Source of the DNA: Anaerolineae bacterium
Lineage (GTDB): Bacteria; Chloroflexota; Anaerolineae; B4-G1; SLSP01
Direction: 5' to 3'
Assembly (NCBI GenBank): GCA_016931315.1
Contig: JAFGFB010000091.1
Coordinates: 1-53,357 of the forward strand
Length of the DNA stretch: 53,357 nucleotides
In this document: positions 4,445 to 36,625 of the stretch, piece by piece
Numbering within the stretch: the first letter of the stretch is position 1
Layout of the letters: each line of letters begins with the position of its first letter
The notes under the pieces: model-generated
What the model saw: the letters and a program-made list of their open reading frames with translations, nothing else
Told to the model about the DNA's origin: nothing
Database searches by the model: none
Position numbers and translations under genes: made by a program

Positions 4445-4470
4445 AAAGGGGGCGGATTTCCGCCCCCTTT
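4445..4470 (-). terminator. Rho-independent terminator downstream of the 4513..5169 gene
   Basis: Stem AAAGGGGGCGG pairs with CCGCCCCCTTT around a 4-nt loop. On the - strand it is followed by TTTTC. Confidence 0.7.
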
Positions 4471-7018: not shown

Positions 7019-7222
7019 TGTTTCTCTCCCACTGCTAGATTAGAAGTCAATGGGTGCGCCTTCGTTACATTGCCCTGGGGTTTTGAGCTCCCGCCAGACT
7101 CTTAGGGTTATAAAGTCGGGGGCTTATACCTCTGGGGTCTAGTTGAATTGCGTCAGTATTGAACTCACTCATTTCTAGAAGTATAGCACGAAGGGAAAGC
7201 TTGTCCAGCGGTGGCAGCATAA

Positions 7223-7386
7223 GGGGTGCGTTTCATTTCGGGGATGGAAATTTCAGGTGCCTCTATGAGGCGCATAAGAATATGGATTTTTCGCGGCGCG
7301 GCGAAGCCGCGCCGCGAAAAATCCATAAAAGAAAAGGCATTTGGGCGATAGCGATCTTGTTTTTGCTCCACAGTTGGAATGCACCC
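7223..7386 (-). repeat. Full-length copy A of the hairpin-centred, TIR-bounded intergenic element (opposite orientation to the 17945 copy)
   Basis: The ends GGGGTGCGTTTCA (7223-) and TTGGAATGCACCC (-7386) are inverted repeats. The central perfect palindrome at 7282-7326 has 21-nt arms and a GAA loop. A second hairpin lies at 7257-7273. It aligns end to end with the reverse complement of 17945-18118. Confidence 0.75.
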
Positions 7387-7559
7387 TACTCATCGGCATT
7401 GTATAGGGCGTAGCGCGGTTTCGGTCAGCGACCTGCTACGAATGCCTGCTATTCGACTGACCATCTCGCACTTGAGAGCCGGATCCGTCTTGCTTATTGC
7501 AGCAAGGCCTCATCAAGGCAACATGCGCTAGTCTGCTTTGGCGCATAACAAAATCGTAA

Positions 7560-8042: not shown

Positions 8043-8133
8043 TGTTTTGGGGCGCGCTCCGTGCGCCCCAAAACAGTAATAAAAGATCCTCTTAGCCTGT
8101 TTGCAAAACCGCGCTTCATTTTTCCTGATGATC
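8043..8133 (-). repeat. Short derivative of the hairpin repeat family (hairpin plus 'CCTCTT..GTTTGCA' tail)
   Basis: 13-bp stem TGTTTTGGGGCGC (8043-8055) pairs with GCGCCCCAAAACA (8063-8075). The tail 'AAAAGATCCTCTTAGCCTGTTTGCAAAACC..GATGATC' aligns with the tails at 36520-, 37631- and 48495-. Confidence 0.6.
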
Positions 8134-8235
8134 TGTCGTATACCCGCCTTGTTGCGCGGCAGTGTGCCGCGAATTGGAGTATAATAACGCTATCGAATTT
8201 GTAACGTGTCCCTATGGGCATACGGGAGGTATGGA

Positions 8236-10310: not shown

Positions 10311-10410
10311 TCGTTTTGGCTGGGACTCCCTTAAAAAACACTCCTGGAATTGCGGCTTTAGCCGCTTTTTGCTGCCAATGGCAACTTGAAAAACCGTTTT
10401 TGTCTTTCTC
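10311..10410. repeat. Decayed or duplicated member of the hairpin repeat family with two 'GCGGC-TTTA-GCCGC'-type mini hairpins
   Basis: 'AAAAACACTCCTGGAATTGCGGCTTTAGCCGC' (10333-10355) matches 'AAAAACACTCTCTAAAATCGCGGCTTTAGCCGC' at 25064-25096. A second unit with GCCGCTTTAGCGGC lies at 10392-10405. Confidence 0.5.
10342..10360 (+). terminator. Small hairpin plus T-run, a possible terminator after the VWA gene
   Basis: GCGGC-TTTA-GCCGC followed by TTTTT. The stem is only 5 bp, so it is weak. Confidence 0.35.
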
Positions 10411-10471
10411 TGCCGCTTTAGCGGCTTTTTGAAGATCTGGAAACTTAATTTACGCTGTAATCCGACTGTGA

Positions 10472-11880: not shown

Positions 11881-13083
11881 TTACATCTCCATACTCAGAA
11901 CTCTGTTGAGGACCTCAAGTGCGGCTTCGGCCGTGCCAAGGGGAGCGCCCCCTTGCGCGAGGGTGGGCGTCCCACCCCCACGACCGCCGAGCTCTCGGGT
12001 GGCTGTGCGCATGCAGGCGCCGGCGTCCACCTTTTCCAGGTCATCACTGCGGGTGCAGATGAGTCTCAGGTTCTCTCCCTCTGTAACCATCAGGAAAGCG
12101 GTTGTAAGGGGCAACTCTCTTAACTTCCGCGCCAGGGCCTGAATCTCGCTAAAACTGCGTGTTTCCCAATGTTTCACGATGCGTCGTGCCCCGTTGTGCA
12201 CCGGAGCTGCTTGCCAGAGCTGCTGCGCCTCGATCTCGGCGAGTGTTTCCTGGCTTTGTTGTTGGCTGCGCCGCAATATGCGAATCTCATCTTGCAGTCT
12301 GGCGACAGCGTCGGCAAAATCATCGCTTCCCGCACTGAGCTGCGCGCCCAACTGTTGGAGAATCTGCAACGCATGGCGGTAATCGCGCAGCGCCCGCATT
12401 CCACAGAGGAAAGTGACCCTGATGCCTCCCTTATAGCGCTCGATTGCGGTAAGTTTTACCAGGCCGATTTGCCCGGTAAAGGGCGTGTGCGTGCCGCCAC
12501 AAGGGCTGGCATCATAACCCTCGATCTGCACGATGCGGATAACCCCACAAACTTGCGGTTCGCGGCGTAGATTGAAGTCTCCCAGTGCCTCTTCACCTAC
12601 CAGATGAATCGCCACGCGGCGGTTTTCCTGAATAATGCGATTGACCTCTTCCTCGACGCGAAAGGCTTCCTCCCAGCTCAATTGTGGCAAGTCAAGGTCT
12701 ACGGTGTTAACGGCTGTACCCATATGCACGGAGAGCGTGTTTGCCTGTAAAAACCGCATAAAGCCCGCGGAAAGCAGATGCTGACCGCTATGCTGCTGCA
12801 TATGATCGAAGCGTACATCCCAATCAATGCTGCCCCGAACACTGCTGGCATCCAGCGGTTTTTCCAGGAGATGCCAGATTCTGCCTTCGGCATCACTCCA
12901 GACATCCCGTACCGCAATATCATTGAGGGTGCCTACATCGTGCTGCTGCCCGCCAGAAGTGGGGTAGAATGCAGTCCGATCCAGGGCCACCGCCGGTCCT
13001 TTAGCCGTCTCTTGCTGTGACTCTACGCGAGCAGTAAAATCCTTGCATGTGACATCAGTGTAATAGAGTTTCTCGGTCGTCAT
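11881..13083 (-). CDS. alaX: AlaX-L type alanyl-tRNA editing protein (tRNA-synthetase second additional domain plus DHHA1)
   Basis: Motifs 'TAFYPTSGGQQHD', zinc motif 'HSGQH' and 'CGGTH', and C-terminal 'GGRGGGTPTLAQGG' (DHHA1). Confidence 0.85.
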   Translation of the reverse strand: MTTEKLYYTDVTCKDFTARVESQQETAKGPAVALDRTAFYPTSGGQQHDVGTLNDIAVRDVWSDAEGRIWHLLEKPLDASSVRGSIDWDVRFDHMQQHSGQHLLSAGFMRFLQANTLSVHMGTAVNTVDLDLPQLSWEEAFRVEEEVNRIIQENRRVAIHLVGEEALGDFNLRREPQVCGVIRIVQIEGYDASPCGGTHTPFTGQIGLVKLTAIERYKGGIRVTFLCGMRALRDYRHALQILQQLGAQLSAGSDDFADAVARLQDEIRILRRSQQQSQETLAEIEAQQLWQAAPVHNGARRIVKHWETRSFSEIQALARKLRELPLTTAFLMVTEGENLRLICTRSDDLEKVDAGACMRTATRELGGRGGGTPTLAQGGAPLGTAEAALEVLNRVLSMEM

Positions 13084-13095
13084 CGCCGCATTGCC

Positions 13096-15327
13096 TCAAG
13101 TGAGTTCGGGGGGGAGGGTGCGCGGCAGCGTGAAACTGAAAGTAGCGCCTTCACCGGGTTTGCTTTCGAGCCAGATGCAACCGCCATGCGCCTCGATGGC
13201 GAGCTTGCAGAAGGCTAAGCCTACACCCGACCCCTGGATTTGTCCCGTGGCGGAGCCGCGCGTATACATATCAAAGATATGTTCCTGTTCGTTGAGAGGG
13301 ATGCCGGGGCCGTTATCGCGCACCGAAAACTTGAACGTGGCGTCGTCAATGGCCATGTCCAGGTCAATAATGCCGCCATTCGGTGTGAACTTTATGGCGT
13401 TGCTGAGCAGGTTGACGAATACCCGGCGCAGCAGGTCCAGGTCGCCCTGAATCATGGGCGGATCGGCTGGCAGGTTCATGTTGAGCGTCTGCCGCCGGTG
13501 CGTTAGCATGGGCTGGCTGATTTCCTCCGTTTCATGGAGCAATGTGGTGATATCGAAAGCCGTAATCGCCAGGGGGCGCTCACCTTGCCGAAGCCGCGCT
13601 GTATCCAGGATCGTATTAATCAGCCGGTCCATCCGTTGGGCGCTGCGTAGGCTGATTTGTAGCAGCTGCTCGATGGGCATCGTGAGGTCTTTCTGCTGCC
13701 ATGCGGCGCGGATCAATTCTATGCTGTTGATGATGCTATTCAATGGCCCCCGCAGATCGTGGATGATCATATTGGAGAGCTGCTCGCGCATTGTCTCCAG
13801 CGCCACGCGGTCGGTGATATCATGTGCCAGCCATTGAAAGCTGGGTTCCGGACGATATTGAGGCAGCGCCGTGAGGTGTGCCTTGAAGGTGCGATCCTGC
13901 GCTTGAGCGATGGGGAGGGTGTATTCCCAGATGTACCTCTTCTGTGTCTGGAGCGCCATTTGGGCTTCCGTAAAGCCCTCACCGGCAAGTCCCATCGCGG
14001 TCAGCACATCTTGTGGTGTCGCTTCAGCAACATCCAATAGCGCTTGCGCTTCCTGATTCAGGTCCAGAACTTTTCCGGCTTCATCCAGAATGACGATGGG
14101 GTCCAGATTGAGGTCAAATAGCTGCTGAAAGCGTGCCTCCGCGTTATAGACCTGTTCGAAGAGAATGGCGTTCTGGATAGCCGGTGCGGCAAGGTCGGCT
14201 AGAGCCGACATAATCTCGCGCGTTTCCCGCACCTCCATGTCCTGTGCCGGGTTTACCATCTCGATGACCGCAACCGTGCGGCCTTTCTGGGTAACCGGCG
14301 CAGCATAGATGGCTTCGGTGCGGAAACCGGTCTGCTGATCAGTTTGGACGTGAAAGCGCTTATCGGCATAGGTATCAGGAACCCACACGGCTTCACCATG
14401 TTCTGCGACCCAACCGACAATGCCTTTGCCGGGTGGCAGATGCAATCCAACCATCTGATCCGCTACCTGACCTGAGGCGGCTTGAAAGGTTGTGCTTCCA
14501 TCGGCATTGACCAATGCAATGGAAACGGCCGCGGGTTGGAAATATTTCAGAGTCAGATTGAGCAGTTGTTGGAGGACTTCCTCACTATTGAGCGTAGCGC
14601 TGAGAGTCCTTGCTGCCTCCAGCAGAAAGGACTGGCGCGCGGCGCCACGTTGCGCCCATTCGGAGAAACGGGCATTGCGCAGGGCGGCAATGATATATTC
14701 CGTGATGGCACGTGCCCAACGTCGGTCGGTATCGGAGAATTGCTGAGGACGCTCGCCAAAGAGCATCAGCACCCCTAAGCGCTCGCCTTCAGAAGTAAGG
14801 GGCATTCCCAACCCGCTGCGCCATGGCAGGTCGGTCCCTTGGGGCTGTATTTCTGGTGTTGTGCCTGAATCGCTGATGTAGATCGGTTGTTGTGTGCGGA
14901 AGGCTTGCGCTGCCGGGTTATCCTCTTGCAGGTTAATTACCGGATTGGTTGGCAACTCGCCGGTGCGCCCAAACCAGGTTTTGGCACGCAGGGTTTCTCC
15001 TTCAGCCAGAAGGATCGCCGCAGCATCGAAAGCGACAATCTTTTGCATCTGGCGTAGAAGCAGGTTGAACACTTCGCCCGGATCAGTGGTACTGACGAAA
15101 CTCGAGCTGGCATGGGCCAACGTGGTCAACACCTGTTGGATGGTGTTCTCTTTTATCGCCCCATTTTCTATTGGCTGGTTTTGGAAACCTTTCTGCAATC
15201 GCATCCAAAGGGTTTTGAGCCGGTCCGCTGTGCTGGGATCGTTGTCTTTGTGATGCGGTGGCAGTCCTGTTGTCTCTTGAGGCGCACTGTTTTGTGGTTT
15301 CATTATTGGTCTCTCATACAAAATCAC
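13096..15327 (-). CDS. Sensor histidine kinase with GAF and PAS domains (soluble; no cognate response regulator nearby)
   Basis: H-box 'IIHDLRGPLNSI'; N and G boxes 'LLSNAIKFTP', 'DNGPGIP', 'GSGVGLA'. GTG start at 15327 or ATG at 15303. The stop of the upstream gene is 2 nt away. Confidence 0.85.
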   Translation of the reverse strand: MILYERPIMKPQNSAPQETTGLPPHHKDNDPSTADRLKTLWMRLQKGFQNQPIENGAIKENTIQQVLTTLAHASSSFVSTTDPGEVFNLLLRQMQKIVAFDAAAILLAEGETLRAKTWFGRTGELPTNPVINLQEDNPAAQAFRTQQPIYISDSGTTPEIQPQGTDLPWRSGLGMPLTSEGERLGVLMLFGERPQQFSDTDRRWARAITEYIIAALRNARFSEWAQRGAARQSFLLEAARTLSATLNSEEVLQQLLNLTLKYFQPAAVSIALVNADGSTTFQAASGQVADQMVGLHLPPGKGIVGWVAEHGEAVWVPDTYADKRFHVQTDQQTGFRTEAIYAAPVTQKGRTVAVIEMVNPAQDMEVRETREIMSALADLAAPAIQNAILFEQVYNAEARFQQLFDLNLDPIVILDEAGKVLDLNQEAQALLDVAEATPQDVLTAMGLAGEGFTEAQMALQTQKRYIWEYTLPIAQAQDRTFKAHLTALPQYRPEPSFQWLAHDITDRVALETMREQLSNMIIHDLRGPLNSIINSIELIRAAWQQKDLTMPIEQLLQISLRSAQRMDRLINTILDTARLRQGERPLAITAFDITTLLHETEEISQPMLTHRRQTLNMNLPADPPMIQGDLDLLRRVFVNLLSNAIKFTPNGGIIDLDMAIDDATFKFSVRDNGPGIPLNEQEHIFDMYTRGSATGQIQGSGVGLAFCKLAIEAHGGCIWLESKPGEGATFSFTLPRTLPPELT

Positions 15328-15329: not shown

Positions 15330-15968
15330 TCAGTCGAAAGTTACAATTTCCTTGCCCTGCAACCGTTCCATGATACGCTCGCTGATCATGCTCAGGTGAT
15401 CACCGTTAGCCACGAAGTCCAGACGATCCGCGGGCACGGTGAGAACCGGGCAAAGTGTAAAGGATTGAAACCAGGCTTCGTAGAGGGTGTTGAGTTGCGC
15501 GACATAATCGGCCCCGATCTGGCGCTCATAGCTGCGATCACGGTGTTGGATTTGCTCGATCAACGTCGGAAGTGAGGCGCGTAAGTAGATGACCAGGTCC
15601 GGCGGCGGCAGAATAGCCGTTACAGCTTCATACAGGTCACGGTAAGTGTTGAAGTCTCGCGGTTGCATCGCCCCGCGCAGAAACAGGTTTTGCGCGAAGA
15701 TTTCGGCATCCTCGTAGACGGTGCGGTCCTGAATGACTGAGTTGGGGCGATCAAGCAACTCGCGATGATGCCGTAGCCGGCGCGCCAGAAAGAAAACCTG
15801 GGAATGGAAGCTCCATTTCTCCATGCTCTCATAGAAATCAGCCAGATAAGGATTATCAGCGACGCCTTCCAGAAACGGCTCCCAGCCCAGTCGCCGGCTC
15901 AATAGCGTCGTAAGCGTGGTTTTCCCTGCGCCGATGTTCCCGGCAATGGCAATATAGTATTTTTTCAT
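15330..15968 (-). CDS. Deoxynucleoside kinase (dAK/dGK/dCK family)
   Basis: The track ORF extends to 16178, overlapping the upstream gene. ATG 15968 gives 'MKKYYIAIAGNIGAGKTT' (P-loop at residue 10), plus 'FLEGVADNPYL' and an 'DRTVYED' motif. Confidence 0.85.
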   Translation of the reverse strand: MKKYYIAIAGNIGAGKTTLTTLLSRRLGWEPFLEGVADNPYLADFYESMEKWSFHSQVFFLARRLRHHRELLDRPNSVIQDRTVYEDAEIFAQNLFLRGAMQPRDFNTYRDLYEAVTAILPPPDLVIYLRASLPTLIEQIQHRDRSYERQIGADYVAQLNTLYEAWFQSFTLCPVLTVPADRLDFVANGDHLSMISERIMERLQGKEIVTFD

Positions 15969-15982
15969 CAGGAGTACCCGGT

Positions 15983-16879
15983 TTAGCCTTTCATAGAAAT
16001 GCCGGCGCGATTTGCTAGCGTGGTCAATGCCGCCAGGGCGGTCCTCAGTGCCTGCTCCAATTCCGTGGATGTTCCATCCGGGCCAATAGGCGGGTGTAGC
16101 GTGAGCGCTCCCCCGATTTTGCCCACTGCCTGCGTCAGTGCGAGGAAATCTCCCAGGGCTTGCCAATTGCTTTCGCATTGGGCTTCAACAGTTTTGATGG
16201 GTAGACTCCAGTTGAAGTGTGGTATTGCTTCTACCTCTGGACTCAGGAGGCTAGGCTGATGCGTACCCGCCAGTGCCGCGAGAATGCGATTCTCGATGAA
16301 TTCCAAATCTTCCGGCGCACGCACAAAGTTCAGCGAGTCCGTATCAATGATCAGCGATGGGGCCTCGGTGTAGTTGCTAAACAATCCCTCATAGCTCTGG
16401 CGCAAGGCTTCGATATAACCGCGATCCATCTGCCGCTCGTAGGGACGATCTCGCATGGCAATGCGCTCCATGAGCGTATCCAGGTTGGCGCGTAAATAGA
16501 CCACCAGGTCGGGTTTGGGTGTATTCTCCGCCAGCGCTTCATACAGGCGATCGTACATTGTCAATTCCTCGCCTGTGATATTGAGATGGGCAAACAATCG
16601 GTCCTTGGCAAATAGATAATCTGCCAGCACCGCCCCCTGTCGCTGGTGTGCCGCCAAGAGCTGTTGTTGGCGGTAACGGCTTAGCAGGAAAAAAATCTGT
16701 GTCTGAAATGCATAGCGGGCACGATCGCTGTAGAAATCGGATAGAAAAGGGTTCTCCTCAAATGCTTCGAGAATGAGCATCGCCTGAAACCGCGGCTGCA
16801 AAAGCCGCGCCAATGTGGTCTTGCCTACGCCGATGACTCCCTCAAACACGATGGAAGAATGATGACCGGCAGTATTCAC
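15983..16879 (-). CDS. Deoxynucleoside kinase paralogue with a roughly 90-aa C-terminal extension
   Basis: P-loop 'FEGVIGVGKTT', plus 'EAFEENPFL' and 'DRPYERQ'. GTG 16879 follows AGGAG with a 7-nt spacer; the track start is 16969. After the kinase core, about 90 aa follow ('..NWQALGDFLALTQAVGKIGG..') with no motif I recognise. Confidence 0.8.
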   Translation of the reverse strand: MNTAGHHSSIVFEGVIGVGKTTLARLLQPRFQAMLILEAFEENPFLSDFYSDRARYAFQTQIFFLLSRYRQQQLLAAHQRQGAVLADYLFAKDRLFAHLNITGEELTMYDRLYEALAENTPKPDLVVYLRANLDTLMERIAMRDRPYERQMDRGYIEALRQSYEGLFSNYTEAPSLIIDTDSLNFVRAPEDLEFIENRILAALAGTHQPSLLSPEVEAIPHFNWSLPIKTVEAQCESNWQALGDFLALTQAVGKIGGALTLHPPIGPDGTSTELEQALRTALAALTTLANRAGISMKG

Positions 16880-17023
16880 TTCACGACTCCTGTGTGGGAT
16901 GACAAGTGATGATGTGCACGCTGCAAGCAAAGTAACGCGTTTGGGTGCTCCCGTATTGGCTTTAAGCATACCCTTATTGTGTCAAAAGTCAAGATTTTGT
17001 TTTACTCTTTTTTATCTATTAAA

Positions 17024-17105: not shown

Positions 17106-17753
17106 ATGGCTTTGCTGAATGATGAGATTAGTGGACAGGTGCGTGAACTGTTTGATGGGATGCCCAGCGTAGTTCGTCTGGTTTTCTTCAAGTTGCCTGA
17201 GGATCAGTGCGAATATTGCGGTGTTATTGAAGAGCTCATTACGGAGCTGGCGGAGACCTCTGCCAGGGTTGTCGTGGAGACTCACCGGTTAGACGTCGAT
17301 AAGGATGCCGCCGCAGCTTATAGTATTGATAAGGCGCCTGCGCTGGCGATTGTGGGCGAAAAAGACTATGGCTTGCGTTTCTTTGGTCTGCCCGCCAACT
17401 ATGAGTTTTCTACATTGGTTCACGGGATTCAGGCGGCGGGGCATGGTGCTCCCGCTCAATTGGATGAGGCGACCTCGAGCTATCTGGCTTCGCTCGATAA
17501 ACCCGTGCACTATCAGGTCTTTGTGACGCCGGGTTGCCCGTATTGTCCTGGAGCCGCTGTATTGGCCTATGACATGGCGGTCGCCAGTGAGTGGGTGCAG
17601 GCTGAGGTGGTTGAAGCTTCTGAATTCCCTGACATTGCGGATCATTATGGCGTCATGGGCGTGCCTCTCAACATTATCAATGAGACAGGACGGGTTGAGG
17701 GCCGTGCACCGCAGAACATGATTGTCGAGACCATCAAATCAGTGCTGGCGTAG
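17106..17753 (+). CDS. Protein disulfide oxidoreductase (PDO) / glutaredoxin-like two-thioredoxin-fold protein
   Basis: Two Trx-fold units with 'CEYC' and 'CPYC' sites, and 'VFVTPGCPYCPGAAVLAYDMA'. 215 aa. AGGAGG lies upstream. Confidence 0.8.
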   Translation: MALLNDEISGQVRELFDGMPSVVRLVFFKLPEDQCEYCGVIEELITELAETSARVVVETHRLDVDKDAAAAYSIDKAPALAIVGEKDYGLRFFGLPANYEFSTLVHGIQAAGHGAPAQLDEATSSYLASLDKPVHYQVFVTPGCPYCPGAAVLAYDMAVASEWVQAEVVEASEFPDIADHYGVMGVPLNIINETGRVEGRAPQNMIVETIKSVLA

Positions 17754-17817: not shown

Positions 17818-17944
17818 GCCCCTTCCCGTCGGTTGGGCAAGCGTTAGGAAGACCGGGCATGTTTATCCGACCCAACCCGGTTTGAGTCAGGCAAGCGCGC
17901 TGCATCTGGTATGAAGTGTTCTGTAGCCGATAGTCTGTCCCATA

Positions 17945-18118
17945 CCCGGTGGGTGCGTTTCAACTTGGGGGAAAAAGCAAGCCGATTATCATGCAAATGC
18001 CTTTCTTTGAGTGATTTTTAGCAGCGGGGCAAAGCCCCGCTGCTAAAAATCACCTTTTTATGCGCCCCGTAGGGGCGCTTGAGATTGTCGCCCCAGATTT
18101 GGAACGCACCCTACCCGG
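17945..18118 (+). repeat. Full-length copy B (used as reference) of the hairpin-centred, TIR-bounded intergenic element
   Basis: TIRs are CCCGGTGGGTGCGTTTCAA (17945-) and TTGGAACGCACCCTACCCGG (-18118). The central palindrome at 18011-18053 has 20-nt arms and an AAA loop. A second hairpin GCGCCCC-GTA-GGGGCGC lies at 18062-18078. Confidence 0.8.
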
Positions 18119-18223
18119 TCGCAGACTTGCTTTTCTTGGCAGTTGGGGTGAAAATAGACCTTAAAGACTGCTCATTGCTGAGATGGAATTAGCATTCTCA
18201 TAAGTTCATACAGGAGGACGAAA

Positions 18224-20535: not shown

Positions 20536-21084
20536 TTGCGCCGTTTTCTTCCGGTATTATGTCTGCTAGGGTTTTTGATGCTTGCCGGCTGTCGTGCTAC
20601 GCAGCAGGAATCCGTTGCCGCTATCCAGGAACCCCTTAGCCCTCCTACCCTTGAGCATCCGCTGGCTGCCGACTTCCAGTTGACGACCCTTGATGGGGAT
20701 ACGGTCAGCCTGCAAGATTATCGTGGCAAGGTTGTGTTGCTCAATTTCTGGGCTACCTGGTGCCCTGCCTGCCGTTCGGAGATGGCTTCTCTCGAACTGT
20801 ACTATCAAGCGCACCAGGCAGAAGGCCTGGTTGTTTTGGGTGTTAATTACCAGGAGGACTCAAATAGCGTGGCCTCTTTTGTGGCTGATGCGGAGCTCTC
20901 TTTTCCGGTGTTGTTGGATACAGCAGGTAAAACGGCCACCGCCTACGGTGTCGTAGGATTGCCGGCTTCGTACTTCGTTGGCTGTCGCGGAGAGCTCCTG
21001 GGTTTTTGGCCTGGCGCCGTTTCTGCCAGCCTATTGGAGCAGCATCTGACGCCCTATCTGGGCGAGTGCCCGGAAACAGAATGA
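20536..21084 (+). CDS. TlpA/ResA-family thiol-disulfide oxidoreductase, lipoprotein
   Basis: 'WATWCPACRSEM' is present. A TTG start at 20536 gives a lipoprotein signal 'MRRFLPVLCLLGFLMLAGC'. The exact start is uncertain; the track gives ATG 20464. Confidence 0.75.
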   Translation: MRRFLPVLCLLGFLMLAGCRATQQESVAAIQEPLSPPTLEHPLAADFQLTTLDGDTVSLQDYRGKVVLLNFWATWCPACRSEMASLELYYQAHQAEGLVVLGVNYQEDSNSVASFVADAELSFPVLLDTAGKTATAYGVVGLPASYFVGCRGELLGFWPGAVSASLLEQHLTPYLGECPETE

Positions 21085-21114
21085 TACGTTGGAAAGATAT
21101 TTGTGGAGCATATC

Positions 21115-21564
21115 ATGACCGATGAGAATGTGCAAAAACCTGGCGCCTGGCGCGTTTTTTGGAAGGAGAATTGGCTGGTTATCCTGGTGGTCTTGGGGTT
21201 GGCCCTGGCTTACCTGATTTTGCACACCCCGCGCCAGACTTTTGCTTCAACCGAGGCGTTGCAGGCGCAGCTGCAAACCGGGCGTCCGGTGCTGGTGGAG
21301 TTCTACTCCAATTCATGCAGCATTTGCCTGATTTCTAAACCCAAAGTGGACCGTCTGGAAGCCGAACTGCAAGATTACGCCACTGTTTTGCGCCTGGATG
21401 TCAAAGACCCTATTGTGCAGCCCTTGGCATCCGCCTGGCGGGTTTACGGCGTGCCCACCTTTTTTGTCGTTGCTGGGGATGGGACCCCAACCTATGGGCG
21501 CGCGGGCGCACCCAATATTGAGGAGCTGCAAGCCGCAGTGATGGCTCTGGTGGATGCCGAGTGA
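21115..21564 (+). CDS. Membrane-anchored thioredoxin-fold protein (CxxC = CSIC)
   Basis: One TM 'WLVILVVLGLALAYLIL', then 'VLVEFYSNSCSICL' and '..VYGVPTFFV'. ATG 21115 lies 6 nt after GGAG; the track start is GTG 21103. Confidence 0.7.
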   Translation: MTDENVQKPGAWRVFWKENWLVILVVLGLALAYLILHTPRQTFASTEALQAQLQTGRPVLVEFYSNSCSICLISKPKVDRLEAELQDYATVLRLDVKDPIVQPLASAWRVYGVPTFFVVAGDGTPTYGRAGAPNIEELQAAVMALVDAE

Positions 21565-21571: not shown

Positions 21572-21700
21572 GGGAGGACGTTTCAACTCCGGGGTAAAGT
21601 AAAGGCGGCTATCCTGTAAATACTTGCCCTTGGTTGATTTTTCGCGGCGGGGTTTTGCCCCGCCGCGAAAAATCAACCATCTTCGAAACGCGCCCGCTAC
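21572..21700 (+). repeat. Copy D of the hairpin element (short form lacking the second hairpin)
   Basis: Left end GGGAGGACGTTTCAACTCCGGGG, right end TTCGAAACGCGCCCGCTAC. The central palindrome at 21631-21679 has 22-nt arms and a TTTTG loop. Confidence 0.7.
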
Positions 21701-24943: not shown

Positions 24944-25009
24944 GCCTGTATCATACCACAGCTTGCCAATGGGTAACTGTTCAGACTTCCGTCGTGGGGC
25001 ACAAATTTC

Positions 25010-25096
25010 GGGCTAAAGCCCGCTATAAGGAGTGTTTTTGGCTGACGCGCTCGCGTGTCAGCCAAAAACACTCTCTAAAATCGCGGCTTTAGCCGC
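25010..25096 (-). repeat. Variant member of the hairpin repeat family
   Basis: Mini hairpin GGGC-TAAA-GCCC (25010-25021). Long hairpin at 25030-25073 with 17 perfect bp, GAGTGTTTTTGGCTGAC pairing with GTCAGCCAAAAACACTC. Mini hairpin GCGGC-TTTA-GCCGC at 25083-25096. Confidence 0.6.
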
Positions 25097-25148
25097 TCTT
25101 CATTGTGGTAAGCGGGAGAATGCTGAACAATTACCTGCAGGGTGAACC

Positions 25149-25269: not shown

Positions 25270-25271
25270 CA

Positions 25272-25304
25272 ACCGTCCGGCAAGAAATTGCCGGACGGTT
25301 TTTC
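25272..25304 (+). terminator. Rho-independent terminator after tRNA-Gly
   Basis: 11-bp stem ACCGTCCGGCA pairs with TGCCGGACGGT around a 6-nt loop, followed by TTTTCG. Confidence 0.75.
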
Positions 25305-26562: not shown

Positions 26563-26645
26563 TTGGATTGCGATTCTTTCCGCTGCATTCTTTGAGAGCT
26601 GAAACCTGAGACCTGAAATTTGTGATTTTTCTTGGGAGGTATTTC

Positions 26646-29090
26646 ATGCGCTACGGTTATTTTGATGATGAACGGCGAGAGTATGTTATTACGCGTCCGG
26701 ATACGCCGCTGCCTTGGATCAATTATCTGGGAAGTCAGGAGTATTTTGGTCTGATTTCAAACACGGCTGGCGGCTATTCCTTCTATCGCGATGCTCGTCT
26801 GCGACGCCTTACGCGCTATCGCTATAACAACGTCCCCCTGGATACTGGCGGGCGTTATCTCTATCTGCGCGATGATACCTCCGGCGCATTTTGGTCGCCT
26901 ACCTGGCAACCCACTCAAACGCCCCTGGAGAACTACACCTGTCGCCATGGAATGGGCTACACGGTCATTGACTCTGCCCACGCCGGCATCGCTACGGAGA
27001 TCCGCTATTTTGTTCCCCTGGATCAAAACCTGGAAATCTGGCAGGTCAAAGTCACCAATCATCGTACGGAAACTGCGCAACTCTCGCTATTTTCTGCCGT
27101 GGAATTTGCGCTCTGGGATGCGCAAGACGATGCCACCAACTTCCAGCGCAACTTTAGCATTGGCGAAGTTGAGGTAGAAGACGGCGTCATTTATCACAAG
27201 ACCGAGTATCGCGAGCGCCGGGACCACTTTGCGTACTTCGCCTGCTCCGCGCCTCTGGCGGGCTTCGATACACAGCGCGAAGCCTTTCTGGGACCTTACC
27301 GGGGGTGGGGTGCGCCACAGGTTGTTGTCGAGGGCTCGGCGCACAACTCCATCGCTCTGGGATGGGCGCCGGTTGGTTCTCACCATGTAAAACTGGAACT
27401 TGCACCGGGTGAGTCACAGGAAGTGCTCTTCGTTTTGGGCTATCATGAGAATCCCCGCGATGCCAAATTCGCTGATTCAGCGCTGCAAGTTATTAACAAG
27501 ACAACGGTTAAGCCGATCATCGCACGCTATCTCGATCCCACCACTGTGGAAGCCGCCTTTGAAGCGTTACGCATGTATTGGGAGGGTTTGCTGGGACGTT
27601 TGGCAGTTGTCACACCCGATGCGCATACGAATCGGATGGTCAACATTTGGAATGCCTACCAATGCATGATCACCTTCAATATGTCCCGTTCTGCCTCTTA
27701 CTTCGAATCTGGCATGGGGCGAGGAATGGGTTTCCGTGATTCCAACCAGGATTTGCTGGGTTTTGTTCACATGGCGCCCGAGCGGGCGCGCGAGCGTATC
27801 CTCGATATCGCCGCAACCCAGTTGCCCGATGGAGGCGCTTACCATCAGTACCAACCGCTGACCAAGCGCGGCAATGACGCGGTAGGGGGGGGCTTCAACG
27901 ACGACCCCCTTTGGTTGATTCTGGGTGTGGGGGCGTATCTGCGGGAGACGGGCGATTGGACGCTCTTGGAGGCGATGACACCCTACGATAACCAACCCGG
28001 CACCGAAACGCCGCTTTATGAGCACTTGCAGCGCGCCGCGCGTTATACCCTGGACCGCTTGGGACCCCACGGTTTGCCCCTCATCGGACACGCCGATTGG
28101 AACGATTGCCTCAACCTGAATACTTTCTCCGATGAACCGGGCCAATCCTTCCAGGTGTTGCAGAGCCAGGACGGCAAGACGGCAGAATCGGTCTTTATTG
28201 GCGGATTGTTTGTGTTAGCCGCAGAAGAACTGGCTGCGATTGCCTATCGCCACGGGCAACCCGCGGATGAAGCCTGGTTGGTCGAAGCCGCCATGCGCAT
28301 GGCGCGGACGGTGGAACAGCACGGTTGGGATGGCGCCTGGTTCTTGCGTGCCTATGACCATTTCGGCGCGAAGGTGGGCTCTGCCGAATGCGATGAGGGT
28401 CAAATCTTCATCGAGCCGCAGGGAATGTGCGTGATGGCGCGTATCGGCGTGGATTCTGGTTTAGCGGCGCAGGCGCTTGCTTCGGTAGAAGCGCGCCTCG
28501 CTACCTCGCACGGCATTGTGTTGAATCAGCCACCATATACACGCTATCACATTGAATTAGGCGAGATTACCTCCTATCCACCGGGCTACAAAGAAAATGC
28601 TGGCGTTTTCTGCCATACTAACCCGTGGATCATGATTGCTGAGGCGGTCCTGGGACGCGGCGACCGGGCTTTCGATTACTACACGCGCATCAACCCCTCG
28701 GCTCGAGAGGCTATCAGCGACGTACATCGCTGCGAACCTTATGTCTATGCTCAGATGATTGCCGGCAAAGATGCGCCGACGCATGGCGAGGCGAAAAACT
28801 CCTGGCTTTCTGGCACGGCGGCGTGGAATTATGTGGCGATTACCCAGTGGATTTTGGGAATTCGCCCTACTTTCGATGGCCTGGAACTCGCGCCGGTCAT
28901 TCCTGCTGCGTGGGAGGGATTCACCGTGACGCGCCTGTTCCGGGGTGTGACTTATCATATCACGGTCAAGCGGCAGGGTCCGGGCAATACCGTCTCCTTG
29001 CGTGTGGATGGCAAAGCGGTTGTGGGGACAATTATCCCCCTGCCTGTAACGGGGCAGAAAGAGGTGGTCGTCGAGGCCGTTTTGGGGTGA
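26646..29090 (+). CDS. GH94 cellobiose phosphorylase
   Basis: 'MRYGYFDDERREYVITRPDTPLPWINYLGS', 'RGMGFRDSNQDLLG', 'GHADWNDCLNL' and 'YPPGYKENAGVFCHTNPW' closely follow the cellobiose phosphorylase pattern as I remember it. ATG 26646 follows GGGAGG. Confidence 0.85.
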   Translation: MRYGYFDDERREYVITRPDTPLPWINYLGSQEYFGLISNTAGGYSFYRDARLRRLTRYRYNNVPLDTGGRYLYLRDDTSGAFWSPTWQPTQTPLENYTCRHGMGYTVIDSAHAGIATEIRYFVPLDQNLEIWQVKVTNHRTETAQLSLFSAVEFALWDAQDDATNFQRNFSIGEVEVEDGVIYHKTEYRERRDHFAYFACSAPLAGFDTQREAFLGPYRGWGAPQVVVEGSAHNSIALGWAPVGSHHVKLELAPGESQEVLFVLGYHENPRDAKFADSALQVINKTTVKPIIARYLDPTTVEAAFEALRMYWEGLLGRLAVVTPDAHTNRMVNIWNAYQCMITFNMSRSASYFESGMGRGMGFRDSNQDLLGFVHMAPERARERILDIAATQLPDGGAYHQYQPLTKRGNDAVGGGFNDDPLWLILGVGAYLRETGDWTLLEAMTPYDNQPGTETPLYEHLQRAARYTLDRLGPHGLPLIGHADWNDCLNLNTFSDEPGQSFQVLQSQDGKTAESVFIGGLFVLAAEELAAIAYRHGQPADEAWLVEAAMRMARTVEQHGWDGAWFLRAYDHFGAKVGSAECDEGQIFIEPQGMCVMARIGVDSGLAAQALASVEARLATSHGIVLNQPPYTRYHIELGEITSYPPGYKENAGVFCHTNPWIMIAEAVLGRGDRAFDYYTRINPSAREAISDVHRCEPYVYAQMIAGKDAPTHGEAKNSWLSGTAAWNYVAITQWILGIRPTFDGLELAPVIPAAWEGFTVTRLFRGVTYHITVKRQGPGNTVSLRVDGKAVVGTIIPLPVTGQKEVVVEAVLG

Positions 29091-29108: not shown

Positions 29109-31514
29109 ATGAACTACGGCTATTTTGATGCTGCGGCTCGCGAATACGTCATTACTGACCCCAAAACGCCGGTGAAGTGGATTAACTATATTGGAACGCT
29201 GGCTTTTGGCGGCTTTGTGGACCACACGGGTGGGGTGGTCCTGTGTAAGGGGGATCCCGCGCTCAACCGTATTACCAAGTACATCGCGCAACTGCCGGAT
29301 GCCGATTTTAAGGGCGCCACGCTCTACCTGCGTTTTCCGGAGGGTGAGGGTTATCGCGTTTTCTCACCCTTCTATACCCCGGCGCTCACCCCCTACACTG
29401 CCTTTTCCTGCAGAGTGGGGCTCGGTTATAACCGTATCACCTCCGAGATGCTTGGCATTCGCACTGATGTCACCATCTTCGTGCCGGAAGGGGGCACGCA
29501 GGAGCTCCGTCTGGTACGGGTGACCAATCTGCGCGCGACACCCGTGACCCTGGAGGCGATTCCTGTGGTGGAATATACCCATCCCGATGCGCTAAAGCAG
29601 CTGACCAATGCGGATTGGGTCCCCCAGACGATGACCAGCCGGATTGTGGATGAGGGTCAGGGTTACAAGACCCTCCTGCAATATCCCTTTATGTATCGGG
29701 ATAGCAAGGTGAACTATTTCACGGCGAGCTTGCCCGTGAGCGCTTTTGAATCCGACCGCGCACGTTTTCTGGGACGTTATGGTACCTGGGCCGCGCCGCA
29801 GGCGTTACAACAGCCCACATTCAGCGACTACGAAGCCTTGCGTGGCGATAATATTGCCGCGCTCCTGCTCTCTCTGGGAGAGCTGGCCCCTGGCGAGACG
29901 CGTGTCTTTGTAACCCAGCTCGGTCAGGCTGATAGTTTCGCGGCTGCCCAGCCTAACATTATCTGTTACCGCGACCCTGCCGCCGCTGAAGCCGCTCTGA
30001 CTGCCCTGGCGCGCTTCTGGGATGGGTATTTGAGCCGCATGCAAGTGGCAACGCCGAGCGCCGCGATGAATGCCATGCTCAACGTCCACAATCCGCGCCA
30101 GGTCTTCACGACCTTGAATTGGTCGCGCTATCTCTCGCTCTACCAGCTCGGTTTTGGTGCGCGAGGCATTGGTTTCCGAGATACCTCGCAGGACATGATG
30201 GGAGCGGTTGTTAATGCGCCGGAGCGCGTCAAAGCCTTGCTGGAGAAACTGCTGCACGTCCAATTGCGGGATGGTTCGGCGATGCACCAGTTCAACCCCC
30301 TGACCATGATTGCCAGTCGTGGCGACGCTGCAGAGATGGAGGATCGCCCCAAGTTCTACGGCGACGATCACTTATGGATTGTGCTGGCAGTGACGGCTTA
30401 TCTAAAGGAGACTGGCGACCTGGCTTTTCTCGACCAGAACATTCCCTTCTACGACAAGGCCAAAACCGGTGAAGCGCTCGAAAGCGCACCGGTATGGGAG
30501 CACTTGCAGCGTGCCGTACACTTCACCCGCACGCATGTGGGGGCGCATGGCTTGCCGCTGTTGGGCTTTGCCGACTGGAACGATACGGTCAATCTCCGGA
30601 CCGGAGCCGAATCGCTATTCAATGCCAATCTTTACGGCAAGGCGCTGCTGGAATTGGCTACCCTTGCCAAATTCCGGGGAGATGTGGACACTGCTGCGAT
30701 TTTTATGCTATACTATTCAGAGATGGCTGAGCGCGTCAATGCGGTCGCATGGGATGGCTCGTGGTATGTGCGTTATTTTGACGCGGATGGGGCACCCCTC
30801 GGAGCGCATAACAACGCTCAAGGTCAGATTTACGCTAACGGGCAGAGTTGGCCCATAATCTCGGGTTTTGCAACCGAGGAGCGGGCGCGGATGGCTTTGG
30901 ATGCCGTCTACGAGCGCCTGAACACCGCTAATGGCATCAAACTCAGCGCCCCGGGCTTCAACGGCTACGATCCCCATAAGGGTGGGGTGACCACATATCC
31001 ACCGGGCGCTAAGGAAAACGGCGGCATTTTCCTGCATGCCAACCCCTGGGTGATGATTGCTGAAACCTTGATCGGGCGTGGCGACCGCGCTTTCGCCTAT
31101 TATGAGCAAATCAACCCTGCGGCGAAGAATGAGCGGATCGAGGTTTATGAGAGCGAGCCGTATGTGTATCCGCAGAACATTCTGGCGGATGAACACCCGC
31201 AATTTGGTCTGGCGCGCAATGGCTGGCTAACGGGTACGGCATCGTGGGCCTATCAGGCAGGAGTGCAATACATCCTCGGTGTGCGACCGACATATACTGG
31301 ACTGGAAATTGATCCGTGCATTCCTGCCAGTTGGGAAGGTTTTAGAATGCGGCGTGTCTTCCGTGATGCCACATACGAGATTGAGGTGCGAAACCCCCAG
31401 CATGTGTGCCGGGGTGTAAAAAGGATATGGGTGGATGGTATGCCGGTGGCGGGTACGGGGCTGCCCATCTTTGCCGACGCAGGTGTCCATCAGGTTGTAG
31501 TGGAATTGGGGTGA
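29109..31514 (+). CDS. Second, divergent GH94 glycoside phosphorylase (specificity undetermined: cellobiose, chitobiose, cellobionate or another beta-disaccharide)
   Basis: 'MNYGYFDAAAREYVITDPKTPVKWINYIG', 'RGIGFRDTSQDMMG', 'GFADWNDTVNL' and 'YPPGAKENGGIFLHANPW'. The catalytic Asp context is conserved. Confidence 0.8.
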   Translation: MNYGYFDAAAREYVITDPKTPVKWINYIGTLAFGGFVDHTGGVVLCKGDPALNRITKYIAQLPDADFKGATLYLRFPEGEGYRVFSPFYTPALTPYTAFSCRVGLGYNRITSEMLGIRTDVTIFVPEGGTQELRLVRVTNLRATPVTLEAIPVVEYTHPDALKQLTNADWVPQTMTSRIVDEGQGYKTLLQYPFMYRDSKVNYFTASLPVSAFESDRARFLGRYGTWAAPQALQQPTFSDYEALRGDNIAALLLSLGELAPGETRVFVTQLGQADSFAAAQPNIICYRDPAAAEAALTALARFWDGYLSRMQVATPSAAMNAMLNVHNPRQVFTTLNWSRYLSLYQLGFGARGIGFRDTSQDMMGAVVNAPERVKALLEKLLHVQLRDGSAMHQFNPLTMIASRGDAAEMEDRPKFYGDDHLWIVLAVTAYLKETGDLAFLDQNIPFYDKAKTGEALESAPVWEHLQRAVHFTRTHVGAHGLPLLGFADWNDTVNLRTGAESLFNANLYGKALLELATLAKFRGDVDTAAIFMLYYSEMAERVNAVAWDGSWYVRYFDADGAPLGAHNNAQGQIYANGQSWPIISGFATEERARMALDAVYERLNTANGIKLSAPGFNGYDPHKGGVTTYPPGAKENGGIFLHANPWVMIAETLIGRGDRAFAYYEQINPAAKNERIEVYESEPYVYPQNILADEHPQFGLARNGWLTGTASWAYQAGVQYILGVRPTYTGLEIDPCIPASWEGFRMRRVFRDATYEIEVRNPQHVCRGVKRIWVDGMPVAGTGLPIFADAGVHQVVVELG

Positions 31515-32794: not shown

Positions 32795-32823
32795 CCTATC
32801 AGATTTGTGCCGCGATGGCATCC

Positions 32824-33987
32824 TTACTGTGGAAACCGTGGGCGTACAGGCGTGTATTCCCACTTGACCTGATTCAGACGGTCATCATTGTTGGGGTTGA
32901 AGGATGTATCATCGGTGTAGAATTCCTCGTTGTTAGCCGTCACCCAGCGGTGTCGCCACTCATTCGATCCGGTATCCACCTGCTTAGTGATGGGGTTGAC
33001 GTATTCCTCTTGCCCGGTAAGTAGCAGATAACCGTCGTTACGAATTTCGGCATGGGTCAATCGCTGGTGTTCTACGATCTCCTGGCTGATACGCTGCAGG
33101 TCCCGTTGGATTTCCAAAGCCCTGCGCGCACGGGCTTGCTCGGCTTGCTGCGCATTCATAAAGGCGTGCGTGAGCATCTCTTGGCTGGCTTGCTCAGACG
33201 CCATCCATTGCAGATTTAGCTCACCAGAAGTCCAGATGTGCTTGAGCACCGGCTCCCAGCGCTCGTATTCCCCCGCCGGGGCGCGTAGCAGCACCGTATT
33301 CTTATTACTCCACATGCCGCCTGCCACGGGTCCCATATATTCGATACAGGTAAAGGCATGTTCCTCAAAGCGTATGCCGTTTTCGGTGTATTGGAATACC
33401 GCTTCGCCGCCATCATACTGGAATGGCGTTGTCCCCCCGAGTTTGGCGGCCTCACGTTTGAAGTGTTCGACCATCAGCGGTTGCGCTTGCTGCCGAATCA
33501 TCTGCCCCCCTTGTGCCTGTGGATGTGCCCAGGGGAAAACCATCCGCACCAGAAATTCCGCTCCCGACATGAGCGGCCAGACGACCATGCCGTTGTATTG
33601 GCTCCCTTGGGGGAAAAACATTGCCGCCGGCATGCCGCGCATATCACAGTACTTTACTTCGGGCGCCCAGCGGATCATCACTGAACCCTCAGTATCGCGC
33701 TTAACCGCAAAGTCCACCTTGGCAGCTATTGTCTGTGCGTTGACGGTTTGCTGCATGTGATTGGCGCGCACGACCCCGCCTACCATCAGCCAGCCTTTGG
33801 GCACGGCCAGGGTGAAAGCTTGTTCGTTCGGTTCCGCGCGCCGCTCAAAGGTGAATCCCTTGAACTCGGTGGTACTTTGAGCTGGGGAGGCGGCGCCTCC
33901 CTGAGTGAAATAGCTGTGGCAATAGGGACATTGCGTCGTTTCTGGCGGCACAGAGGCGCCACATGCCGGGCAACGCGAAAGGTTCAT
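32824..33987 (-). CDS. Zinc-ribbon N-terminal domain protein, otherwise uncharacterised
   Basis: 'CPACGASVPPETTQCPYCHS' lies at residues 6-25. The remaining roughly 360 aa have no TM segment and no motif I recognise. Confidence 0.55.
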   Translation of the reverse strand: MNLSRCPACGASVPPETTQCPYCHSYFTQGGAASPAQSTTEFKGFTFERRAEPNEQAFTLAVPKGWLMVGGVVRANHMQQTVNAQTIAAKVDFAVKRDTEGSVMIRWAPEVKYCDMRGMPAAMFFPQGSQYNGMVVWPLMSGAEFLVRMVFPWAHPQAQGGQMIRQQAQPLMVEHFKREAAKLGGTTPFQYDGGEAVFQYTENGIRFEEHAFTCIEYMGPVAGGMWSNKNTVLLRAPAGEYERWEPVLKHIWTSGELNLQWMASEQASQEMLTHAFMNAQQAEQARARRALEIQRDLQRISQEIVEHQRLTHAEIRNDGYLLLTGQEEYVNPITKQVDTGSNEWRHRWVTANNEEFYTDDTSFNPNNDDRLNQVKWEYTPVRPRFPQ

Positions 33988-34041
33988 GATAGCCTCCAGG
34001 ACACAAAAGAAACCGTTCTGAAGCGTAATTTAAGCCGTAAC

Positions 34042-34563
34042 TTATCGCAACCAACCGAGCAACAGCAGCCCCAGTAACCAGCCAAACAACAATCCGCCGC
34101 CGATATCGCCCGCAAAGTGCAACCCCAGTGCAACACGGCTGGCGCATACAGTAATGCCCCAGACGGCCAGTAATGCCGCCCCCCATGGCGGCAACATCGT
34201 CCCCAATACCAGCATCAGCCCCCCGACGCGCGTCGCATGTCCTGAGGGGAAACCATGCCGGTCATAGCGTAGGAAGAAGCCCCGCGGTTCTGCCTGTGGA
34301 CGCCGGCGGCGGAAGAGCAATTTCAGAGCACCGCTGAGCGCACCGGTGAGCAATACCGTGATGATGATGCGCGTGCCCATCGCTGTCAGCTTGCCCCCGA
34401 GCCACCACAGCAGCAGCCCCGCTACCAACCATAACAGGCTATCGCCCGTATGCGCGATGAAGACTGCCATCCCGCGCCAGGGTTGCCGACGTACCAGGCG
34501 CAGGGCGCGGTGCGAAAGGGCTGCATCCAGCGTAGCCAGGCGCTGCCAGGGCGACTCCATCAC
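34042..34563 (-). CDS. PAP2-family phosphatase (membrane)
   Basis: PAP2 motifs 'KLLFRRRRP', 'PSGH' and 'SRVALGLHFAGD'. Polytopic. The start (GTG 34563 or ATG 34560) overlaps the stop of the upstream gene. Confidence 0.8.
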   Translation of the reverse strand: MMESPWQRLATLDAALSHRALRLVRRQPWRGMAVFIAHTGDSLLWLVAGLLLWWLGGKLTAMGTRIIITVLLTGALSGALKLLFRRRRPQAEPRGFFLRYDRHGFPSGHATRVGGLMLVLGTMLPPWGAALLAVWGITVCASRVALGLHFAGDIGGGLLFGWLLGLLLLGWLR

Positions 34564-35345
34564 GCCCGGCGCATCTCCAGTTCTCGGCGGCAGAGCTCCA
34601 ATTGCACGGGCTTGTCCACATCCATACCGAGCTCGGCATATTTTGACCGCACCACACGTACCTGAATCCCAAATCCAAGTGCGGCGCGGCGCTCCAATTC
34701 CTCAACGCGCAGGCGCCGCAGCGCCAGTTTTACGAAGAACATGGGACCTAAGCGTAGCGCCTGTTTCAGGGCGTTTTTGCGATTGTTAATCAAGCTATCC
34801 CACAGCTCGGCGTGCCGGTTCACCATATCTGGTGCGATGATATGAAAATCCCCGCCTGCTAAATCTTCATTGGCGAAGTGAATGAAGGTGCGGCGCGAAT
34901 CGGGAAAGCGCGCCTCCATGATCTCACTCGGCACGTCGAAATGGTACAGATCCACACTCGGGTCCGAACACTGCGCGATGCCCCATTCCACCATCTCGGC
35001 GGTGATAAGGGGAATATCCCCGCTACACATGATGACCTGCGGCGTGATATTGCCCAACTCACGCAGTTTTGCCAGACCCGCCACCCCGTTCTGAAAGAGC
35101 GACCCGGCATTGGGCACATGCGCAACAATCTTGTGTGAAGTGGCCGGTGTCGCCTGCTCCTCTAGTCCCACGATGACGATTCGCCCCACGCCCGGTGCGT
35201 CCGTGAGCGTATCCAAAACCCACTGTAGCATCGGCTTGCCCGCCAGTGGCAGGAGGGCTTTGGCTTCACCCTGCGTGAAAGCATAAAGGGGTTCTTCTGG
35301 CGTCGGGATTCCGCCCGCCAGCACCAGTGTGTCTAGCACACTCAT
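34560..35345 (-). CDS. MobA-like NTP-transferase domain protein (nucleotidyltransferase)
   Basis: 'LVLAGGIPTPEE..ALLPLAGKPMLQWVLDTL' is a nucleotidyltransferase N-terminal signature. An ATGA overlap joins it to the upstream gene. Confidence 0.65.
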   Translation of the reverse strand: MSVLDTLVLAGGIPTPEEPLYAFTQGEAKALLPLAGKPMLQWVLDTLTDAPGVGRIVIVGLEEQATPATSHKIVAHVPNAGSLFQNGVAGLAKLRELGNITPQVIMCSGDIPLITAEMVEWGIAQCSDPSVDLYHFDVPSEIMEARFPDSRRTFIHFANEDLAGGDFHIIAPDMVNRHAELWDSLINNRKNALKQALRLGPMFFVKLALRRLRVEELERRAALGFGIQVRVVRSKYAELGMDVDKPVQLELCRRELEMRRA

Positions 35346-36247: not shown

Positions 36248-36430
36248 GATAATGCCCCTTTGCTGTGAAGATAATTTGGCTTGCGTTATCCTATGCCGCT
36301 TCGGCCTCGAGGATGCAAGAATTTCAAAGGTCGCGCGTTGCTCGCGCATAGGGTCTGCTAATATCCTCCTATTTTACCCCAGAAAGCCATTCTCACGAAT
36401 CTTCGGGGTATAGGGCAAATGATTGGCTGT

Positions 36431-36574: not shown

Positions 36575-36625
36575 TACCGGAATCCCGAATTTGTGGATGA
36601 GTGTGGTTGCTAAGCCATCCCAGTG

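Follow-up and report, generated by a model that had tools for sequence, protein, structure and literature searches.

The DNA analysed here (the window, by which we mean the whole stretch of 53,357 nt) is contig JAFGFB010000091.1 of assembly GCA_016931315.1, from an Anaerolineae bacterium of the Chloroflexota, and its G+C content is 56%. Among its genes are two sets of tandem paralogues, GH94 phosphorylases at 26622-29090 and 29109-31514 and deoxynucleoside kinases at 15330-16178 and 15983-16969, and a pair made of an AlaX-like editing-domain protein (11881-13083) and a full alanyl-tRNA synthetase (50450-53257). RRM and ChlI-like genes are present as well. Between RuvX/YceG and a protein of unknown function lies a gene (46795-48381) encoding a 528-aa protein with no Pfam match at E<=1e-5, the orthologues of which carry the precomputed annotation Baseplate_J (PF04865). 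A cyanobacterial origin, to which the RRM and ChlI-like genes might point, was rejected, as the HIP1 motif GCGATCGC of cyanobacteria is absent from the window and the relatives are Anaerolineae.

Four intergenic segments of the window, called here copies A to D, share one plan. That they can be aligned with each other was the claim of an earlier, sequence-only reading of this DNA, and blastn between the copies bears it out (E = 1e-11 to 1e-23). A profile made from the four with nhmmer matches each of them with E = 2e-39 to 5e-51 and finds no other full-length copy in the 53-kb window. The copies, the short direct repeats beside them and the neighbouring promoters are listed below.

7224-7386, reverse strand: copy A, 163 nt
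7386-7374, reverse strand: left repeat of A
7327-7281, reverse strand: central 22-bp hairpin of A
7273-7257, reverse strand: second hairpin of A, with one mismatch
7236-7224, reverse strand: right repeat of A
7180-7207, reverse strand: native promoter beside A, TGGACA-16-TATACT with TG before the -10 box, for gene 7018-5792
17943-17950: left target-site duplication of B, TACCCGGT, flush with the left repeat and identical to the right duplication
17951-18111, forward strand: copy B, 161 nt, the youngest-looking copy
17951-17963: left repeat of B, GGGTGCGTTTCAA
18011-18053: central 20-bp hairpin of B
18062-18078: second hairpin of B
18099-18111: right repeat of B, TTGGAACGCACCC
18112-18119: right target-site duplication of B, TACCCGGT, flush with the right repeat
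18127-18155, forward strand: candidate native promoter of the thioredoxin-reductase operon, TTGCTT-17-GAAAAT, outside the element
21572-21695, forward strand: copy C, 124 nt, a short form
21572-21586, forward strand: left repeat of C
21631-21679, forward strand: central 22-bp hairpin of C
21683-21695, forward strand: right repeat of C
43123-43130: left direct repeat of D, CTACCCCC
43131-43391, forward strand: copy D, 261 nt
43131-43143, forward strand: left repeat of D
43191-43233, forward strand: central 20-bp hairpin of D
43242-43258, forward strand: second hairpin of D
43283-43296, forward strand: degenerate internal end of D
43379-43391, forward strand: true right repeat of D, TTGAAACGCACCC
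43393-43400: right direct repeat of D, CTACCCCC, an 8/8 match, with one extra G (43392) before it
43409-43436, forward strand: candidate native promoter of the LCP-family gene, TTGCGT-16-TATGAT, preceded by TGG

The typical unit is about 161-166 nt long and consists of six parts in a fixed order: a 13-nt terminal inverted repeat (consensus GGGTGCGTTTCAA), a GGGG block, a conserved left arm, a hairpin of 20-22 bp with a TTTTT/AAAAA base, a short GC hairpin and, last, a CCCC block followed by the right inverted repeat. The core of the inverted repeat thus measures 13 nt, or ~20 paired positions if the GGGG/CCCC blocks are counted; it is 12/13 complementary in B, and the repeats are conserved among copies and genomes. 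When TTGAAACGCACCC is sought in the window with at most two mismatches it is found six times, every time at the end of an element, in agreement with the terminal repeats first described. Such 13-mers would be expected 1.4 times, and none of 100 shuffles reached six. The central hairpins are perfect in A, B, C and D, as had been reported, with stems of 22 bp in A and C and of 20 bp in B and D. The second, 7-bp hairpin is likewise present in three copies, A (one mismatch), B and D, and is missing from C. All copies fold far better than shuffled sequence on either strand (z of -7 to -12).

Some of the boundaries had to be redrawn. The right end of D had been placed at 43296, which is wrong: the canonical right repeat lies at 43379-43391, and D holds ~85-100 nt of extra internal sequence that forms hairpins. 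Copy C is indeed a shorter form with both ends present, but it lacks the second-hairpin segment only and ends at 21695, not 21700. In B the inverted repeat is real, but the outer CCCGGT/ACCCGG that had been counted in it belongs to a flush 8/8 direct repeat, TACCCGGT. The sequence-only reading had also spoken of about six derivatives in the window. We could not confirm them: the profile gives a single weak match, to the hairpin only, at 48455-48525, and the other hairpin-centred intergenic elements are mostly different families of the same architecture. In whole-copy comparisons A to D are 61-71% identical, and their best local blastn segments reach 70-75.5%. With the copies found in relatives the family has seven known members, 60-77% identical to one another, and hence no near-identical source for the young insertion B is seen among them.

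The element carries no gene. Open reading frames within the copies are short and differ from copy to copy, the peptide common to the translated copies is only ~22 residues long, and the open reading frame at 7159-7413, in the region of copy A, has no record in protein databases. The absence of a transposase from the window, noted before, also stands: ~40 ORFs were checked against Pfam and no transposase or RAYT domain was found.

The comparison covered the window (53 kb) and related loci totalling about 1.1 Mb. A scan of genome collections with the thioredoxin reductase showed that the nearest genomes are Anaerolineae/Chloroflexota MAGs and gave five useful relatives; more were collected through homologues of the LCP-family protein and of the RRM protein. 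Nucleotide identity to the window is about 88% in locus L002, which is collinear with it, about 80% in the syntenic L003 and 70-80% in L004. From metagenomes, scanned with the AlaX-like protein, came only two relatives (74% identity), neither of which has a copy of the family (0/2), and look-ups of exact window proteins led only to short Logan contigs of the same organism. Three short-read contigs of the same or a sister organism begin or stop inside elements: L079 begins in the central hairpin of copy A, L001 stops in that of copy C and L080 begins in a right arm. The repeats thus break short-read assemblies.

Filled and empty orthologous sites, the comparison that the sequence-only reading had proposed as a check, were seen for all four copies. 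Site B is empty in L002, L003 and L004, which retain the flanking genes and the promoter block. This block, CTTGCnTTT...GTTGGG...AAAATA, is conserved in these three element-free relatives, and in the window its -35 box begins 15 nt past the right end of B. We considered whether site B of L002 holds the decayed remnant of an element and dropped the idea, as re-alignment fits an empty site with a different small hairpin. In the spacer to the left of B, positions 17883-17914 match 37712-37743 in inverted orientation (32 nt, 78%) and may be a piece of another repeat family.

Copy A is missing from L087 and L088 (80% identity), in which the flanks and the promoter are conserved. The promoter beside A is the sole promoter-like site that the scan found in the 574-nt spacer; its -35 box begins 16 nt past the right end of A, and it is conserved in the empty-site relative L087. 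No recognisable target duplication surrounds A, nor does one surround C. Copy C is common to the closest relative only, L002, where its orthologue lies at 13343-13491 with 75% identity. Its central hairpin lies 8 nt 3' of the stop codon of the last gene of an operon, a position at which L003 and L004 have an ordinary A-stem-T terminator hairpin instead.

At site D the unit missing from relatives spans about 43096-43405. Five relatives (L082 and L083-L086) have only 27-89 nt opposite this interval, and the sequence is alignable on both sides of it, through ATTATAGCACAATT upstream and GAGCGTGGTATnAT downstream. Both GAGCGTGGTATnAT and TTTGCGTTTCAT of the D promoter, the -35 box of which begins 17 nt past the right end of D, are also conserved in L082 and L083, where the site is empty. 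Within this promoter, in the native flank of D, TGCGTTTCA matches TGAAACGCA of the right repeat of D perfectly over 9 bp when read as its reverse complement. One further relative, L081, the flanking gene of which has 83% identity to that of the window, has a copy of 163 nt at the exact position of D. The right ends of the two copies are equidistant from GAGCGTGGTAT, with 22 nt between the L081 duplication and GAGCGTGGTAT, and the promoter that follows in L081 (TCCCGT-16-TATAAT, preceded by TGG) has its -35 box beginning 16 nt past the right repeat. The duplication around the L081 copy, CCGTTCAC, is flush and perfect (8/8) and differs from that of D. In sequence the L081 copy is closer to B and to a partial copy in L002 (75-77% identity) than to D (60%). 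The different duplications and the identity of 60% both point to independent insertions. Since two flanking repeats cannot co-evolve at 4/8 positions, D and the L081 copy must have arrived independently at one spot. The same duplication settled another point: TACCC had been a candidate part of the element end, which we dropped because CCGTTCAC does not contain it, so that TACCC is target sequence.

Partial copies occur near position 8136. L002 has there the central hairpin, the second hairpin and the right arm, ending in ...GCACCC, in a chimera whose left part comes from a family called D4 and whose right half is that of the present family. In L003 just the right arm is present, with the same ending ...GCACCC, directly after the terminator of a gene. 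The window has just CGTAT where L002 has 102 nt of element.

Taken together, these comparisons show that the element has been gained and lost between close relatives, that it makes target duplications of 8 bp, which were found for B, D and the L081 copy, and that it has been active in at least two lineages. Size, lack of coding content, target duplication, copy number and insertion polymorphism all uphold the original suggestion of a MITE; inverted repeats are present as well, but short. Hence, we hold it to be highly probable that the four repeats are copies of a new, lineage-specific family of non-autonomous DNA transposons (MITEs) of an uncultured Anaerolineae bacterium. The kind of mobile DNA is ordinary; the family was previously undescribed. 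Its units, of 124-261 nt, fall within the size range of about 70-300 bp given for MITEs, and with four copies in 53 kb it is dispersed and multi-copy. MITEs are usually defined by terminal inverted repeats of 15-30 bp (PMC3733652), a range above the 13-nt core of this family. The inverted repeats would be recognised by a transposase encoded elsewhere in the genome, which would mobilise the element. In search of an autonomous partner we scanned all loci for terminal repeats paired in inverted orientation at distances of 0.06-4 kb, which returned known elements and chance pairs only; the window, the ~1.1 Mb of related loci, viral contigs and plasmids yielded no autonomous element with these ends. 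Nor is the family sequence matched in Rfam, in plasmids (by BLAST) or in viral contigs (in two pattern scans), and our literature searches found no MITEs or repeat families described for Chloroflexi/Anaerolineae.

A family of structured small RNA genes had been offered as the alternative to a transposon, and it deserves to be weighed in a broader form: the segments might be small-RNA genes or cis-regulatory leader RNAs in paralogous copies, their presence and absence reflecting gene gain and loss. The folds are indeed very stable, the copies next to promoters all have one orientation, and the central hairpin with its T-rich tail is terminator-like on one strand only, the forward strand of the element, where a scan called it in A, B and D. 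Pairing is well kept in the alignment of copies: 90% of the cells of the central hairpin are paired, with 8 pairs changed on both sides, and 92% of those of the second hairpin, again with compensatory changes; the outer repeat stem is 77% paired. Yet compensatory changes do not separate selection on an RNA from palindromy of the DNA, and the folds are equally stable on either strand. On the forward strand of seven copies G-U pairs outnumber A-C pairs by 29 to 16, mostly through the second hairpin (14 vs 5), which is at best a weak hint at an RNA strand, and with six copies the count is even (14 vs 14). Rfam 15 at its gathering threshold matches only the tRNA-Gly in the window and none of the elements, while a permissive scan of B gave chance microRNA-type matches on the hairpin, at 14-25 bits where the thresholds are 58-107. 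Within the element no candidate promoter was convincing; one in the left arm of B, TTGGGG-16-TATCAT, was rejected because A and C do not conserve it. The elements precede the native promoters and stay outside the downstream transcripts, and as these promoters are also present at empty sites the elements are not leaders of the downstream genes. RNA genes, moreover, do not make flush direct repeats of 8 bp that differ from copy to copy. With no Rfam match, a position upstream of promoters shared with empty sites and a weak G-U bias, RNA genes are unsupported as the primary nature of the family, and we consider this explanation very unlikely.

Mosaic palindromes of the REP/BIME kind, propagated by a RAYT-type (HUH) transposase or through hairpin modules that recombine with one another, would account for the several hairpin families of one plan in intergenic regions and for the chimeric and partial copies, such as the D4-family fusion of L002 and the lone right arm of L003. 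However, units of ~160 nt with inverted repeats, no consistent tag and 8-bp target duplications fit such palindromes poorly, and Pfam finds no RAYT/Y1 transposase domain in the ORFs of the window; we think this origin very unlikely. The segments might also not be mobile at all and represent locally conserved regulatory spacers, alike through a common function or through segmental duplication. Every full copy does lie just upstream of a promoter, and C at the end of an operon. But the promoters and flanking genes are conserved in relatives free of the element, what is present or absent begins and ends at the inverted repeats, the element is bracketed by direct repeats, and two different copies hold one position in two lineages. 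The aligned filled and empty sites already contradict conserved spacers, which we regard as extremely unlikely.

The position of the insertions relative to promoters is what lifts this family above the routine, if the apparent specificity of site and orientation is real. Every datable copy has its right end 15-17 nt from the -35 box: the distance is 16 nt in A, 15 nt in B, 17 nt in D and 16 nt in the L081 copy. It is also this right end that faces the gene each time, in these four as well as in the partial copies of L002 and L003, which lie upstream of gene 8206. The promoters beside A, B and D are conserved at element-free sites. Those of B and D were not called under the stricter -35 rule of the promoter scan, so that for these two the evidence is reading and conservation. 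The right repeat itself was considered as a sigma-54 or ECF-type -35 box and rejected on spacing and on downstream motifs.

From these distances we infer that insertion may be aimed, in one orientation, at 8 bp located ~7-8 nt upstream of the -35 hexamer. One cue might be a resemblance of the -35 regions (TTGCGTTTCA, TTGCTTTTC) to the element's own end. This likeness is strong only at the D/L081 site; it is partial at B (TTGCTTTTC) and weak to absent at A, and the -35 region of L081, CCCGTTTCA, matches the element end in part. A transposase could thus read -35 regions that mimic the element end (TGCGTTTCA), or it could be guided by contact with promoter-bound RNA polymerase. On these four or five events promoter targeting is possible, though somewhat less likely than not.

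The central hairpin adds to this question. A GC-rich stem-loop followed directly by a T-rich tract, as in an intrinsic terminator, was called on the forward strand of A, B and D, with tails CTTTTTAT, TATTCTTAT and TTTCTCCT. The hairpin and its tail would act as a forward-facing terminator just ahead of the promoter and block read-through from upstream, and in copy C the central hairpin is predicted to act as the terminator of the operon itself. One might therefore speculate that MITEs of these Anaerolineae always insert at one distance from promoters, facing one way, and, with a terminator ahead of each, behave as mobile transcriptional insulators. An unrelated hairpin-centred family might do likewise, as its copy at 24972-25135 ends 13 nt before the -35 box of a tRNA-Gly promoter. 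We find this whole proposal possible, though on balance doubtful. Should oriented insertion next to promoters hold genome-wide, the family would join the rare examples of promoter-targeted transposition in bacteria and would offer terminator or insulator modules that are portable by nature. Mobile DNA would then be seen to reshape the boundaries of transcription units, and copy C has already taken the place of an operon terminator. In more practical terms, the filled and empty sites are ready-made markers to tell related strains apart, and the elements account for spurious ORFs and for the breaking of short-read contigs.

Other repeats of the window deserve mention. The element at 24972-25135 is palindromic as well, 165 nt long and of the same build as the studied family, but unrelated to it. 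It is bounded by inverted repeats GGTAACTGTTCAG/CTGAACAATTACC and contains two hairpins at the sides and one of 19 bp, with a TTTTT/AAAAA base, in the centre; the -35 box that follows its end reads TTGTCA. At the corresponding site L002 has the left part only, L004 has nothing and L003 has a different element at the same spot. A tRNA-derived origin of the family studied here was entertained and dropped, since the 22/29 match to tRNA-Gly (family D14) does not rise above chance among the matches listed. In L083 two inverted copies of a 270-nt element with three hairpins (17420-17700 and 20900-21200) flank the alanyl-tRNA synthetase gene, and their ends (TAACTGTTCAG) match the family of 24972-25135. 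An end of the TAACTGTTCAG type also occupies positions 1-31 of L081, where it borders directly on the studied-family copy, so that elements are stacked one against another upstream of a single promoter. Other hairpin-centred families of this build accumulate at the same sites. A small hairpin, AATTGCGGCTTTAGCCGCTTTT (family D9), occurs three times, at 10348-10369, 10408-10429 and 25079-25100: two are in tandem after a VWA gene and one is a side hairpin of the 24972-25135 element.

A third repeat family has a hairpin GTGTTTnGG...CCnAAACAC followed by a tail of ~70 nt (AAAAGATCCTCTTnGnCTGTTTGCAnAACC ... ATCTGTCGTATACCC). Its copies lie at 8043-8145, 36483-~36560, 37585-~37700 and 48454-~48530 of the window and at 16758-16864 of L003. 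It is polymorphic between genomes, and L002 has a fusion of it with the right half of the studied family. Two of its copies flank the MscS channel gene in a segment of ~5 kb (~32800-37750) that is missing from the otherwise collinear L083 and L084 and that contains five genes, including a PAP2 phosphatase, an NTP-transferase-like gene and the MscS channel. Many intergenic hairpins are unusually long, with 13-22 perfect bp (e.g. 8043-8075, 25030-25073, 36483-36519, 37585-37630 and 48454-48494). In these the T-run is 5' and the A-run 3' of the stem, the reverse of the classical bidirectional terminator. Ordinary A-stem-T hairpins are found in the window as well (810-840, 4445-4470 and 25271-25300).

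Among known systems the closest parallels are the bacterial MITEs, such as RUP of Streptococcus pneumoniae and Nezha of cyanobacteria, which are likewise small and non-coding and have inverted repeats and target duplications (PMC3733652). They also share with our family the dispersed intergenic copies, the polymorphism of insertions between relatives and the folding of the whole unit into a long hairpin. Unlike bacterial MITEs generally, the family described here has a repeat core of 13 nt and an apparently constrained position and orientation relative to promoters. REPs measure 20-40 bp and bear GTAG or CGTC as a tag at one end (PMC3733652). REP/BIME sequences and RAYT-mobilised REPINs resemble our family as intergenic hairpin repeats that occur in mosaic combinations and can serve as the 3' ends of transcripts. 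In contrast with REPs, which make no target duplication, our unit is four times longer and has inverted repeats and 8-bp duplications. The bases before its hairpins vary among copies (GAGTGA, TATGGA, TGGTTGA, GATTGA, GTAGA) and form no consistent GTAG or CGTC tag.

Correia elements (NEMIS/CREE) of Neisseria are another instructive case. They are about 100-155 nt long, bounded by inverted repeats and often close to genes, they form hairpins when transcribed, and promoter and terminator effects on neighbouring genes have been reported for them. Their repeats are of 26 nt and a TA dinucleotide is duplicated; they are known only from Neisseria. The present family, by contrast, has an unrelated repeat sequence, a duplication of 8 bp and a host among the Chloroflexota, and no outward promoter was found in its ends. 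Finally, IS30 is an insertion sequence that targets sequences resembling its own ends. A similar preference might be at work here, as -35 regions beside the insertions resemble the end of the element, with a perfect 9-bp match, TGCGTTTCA, in the flank of D.
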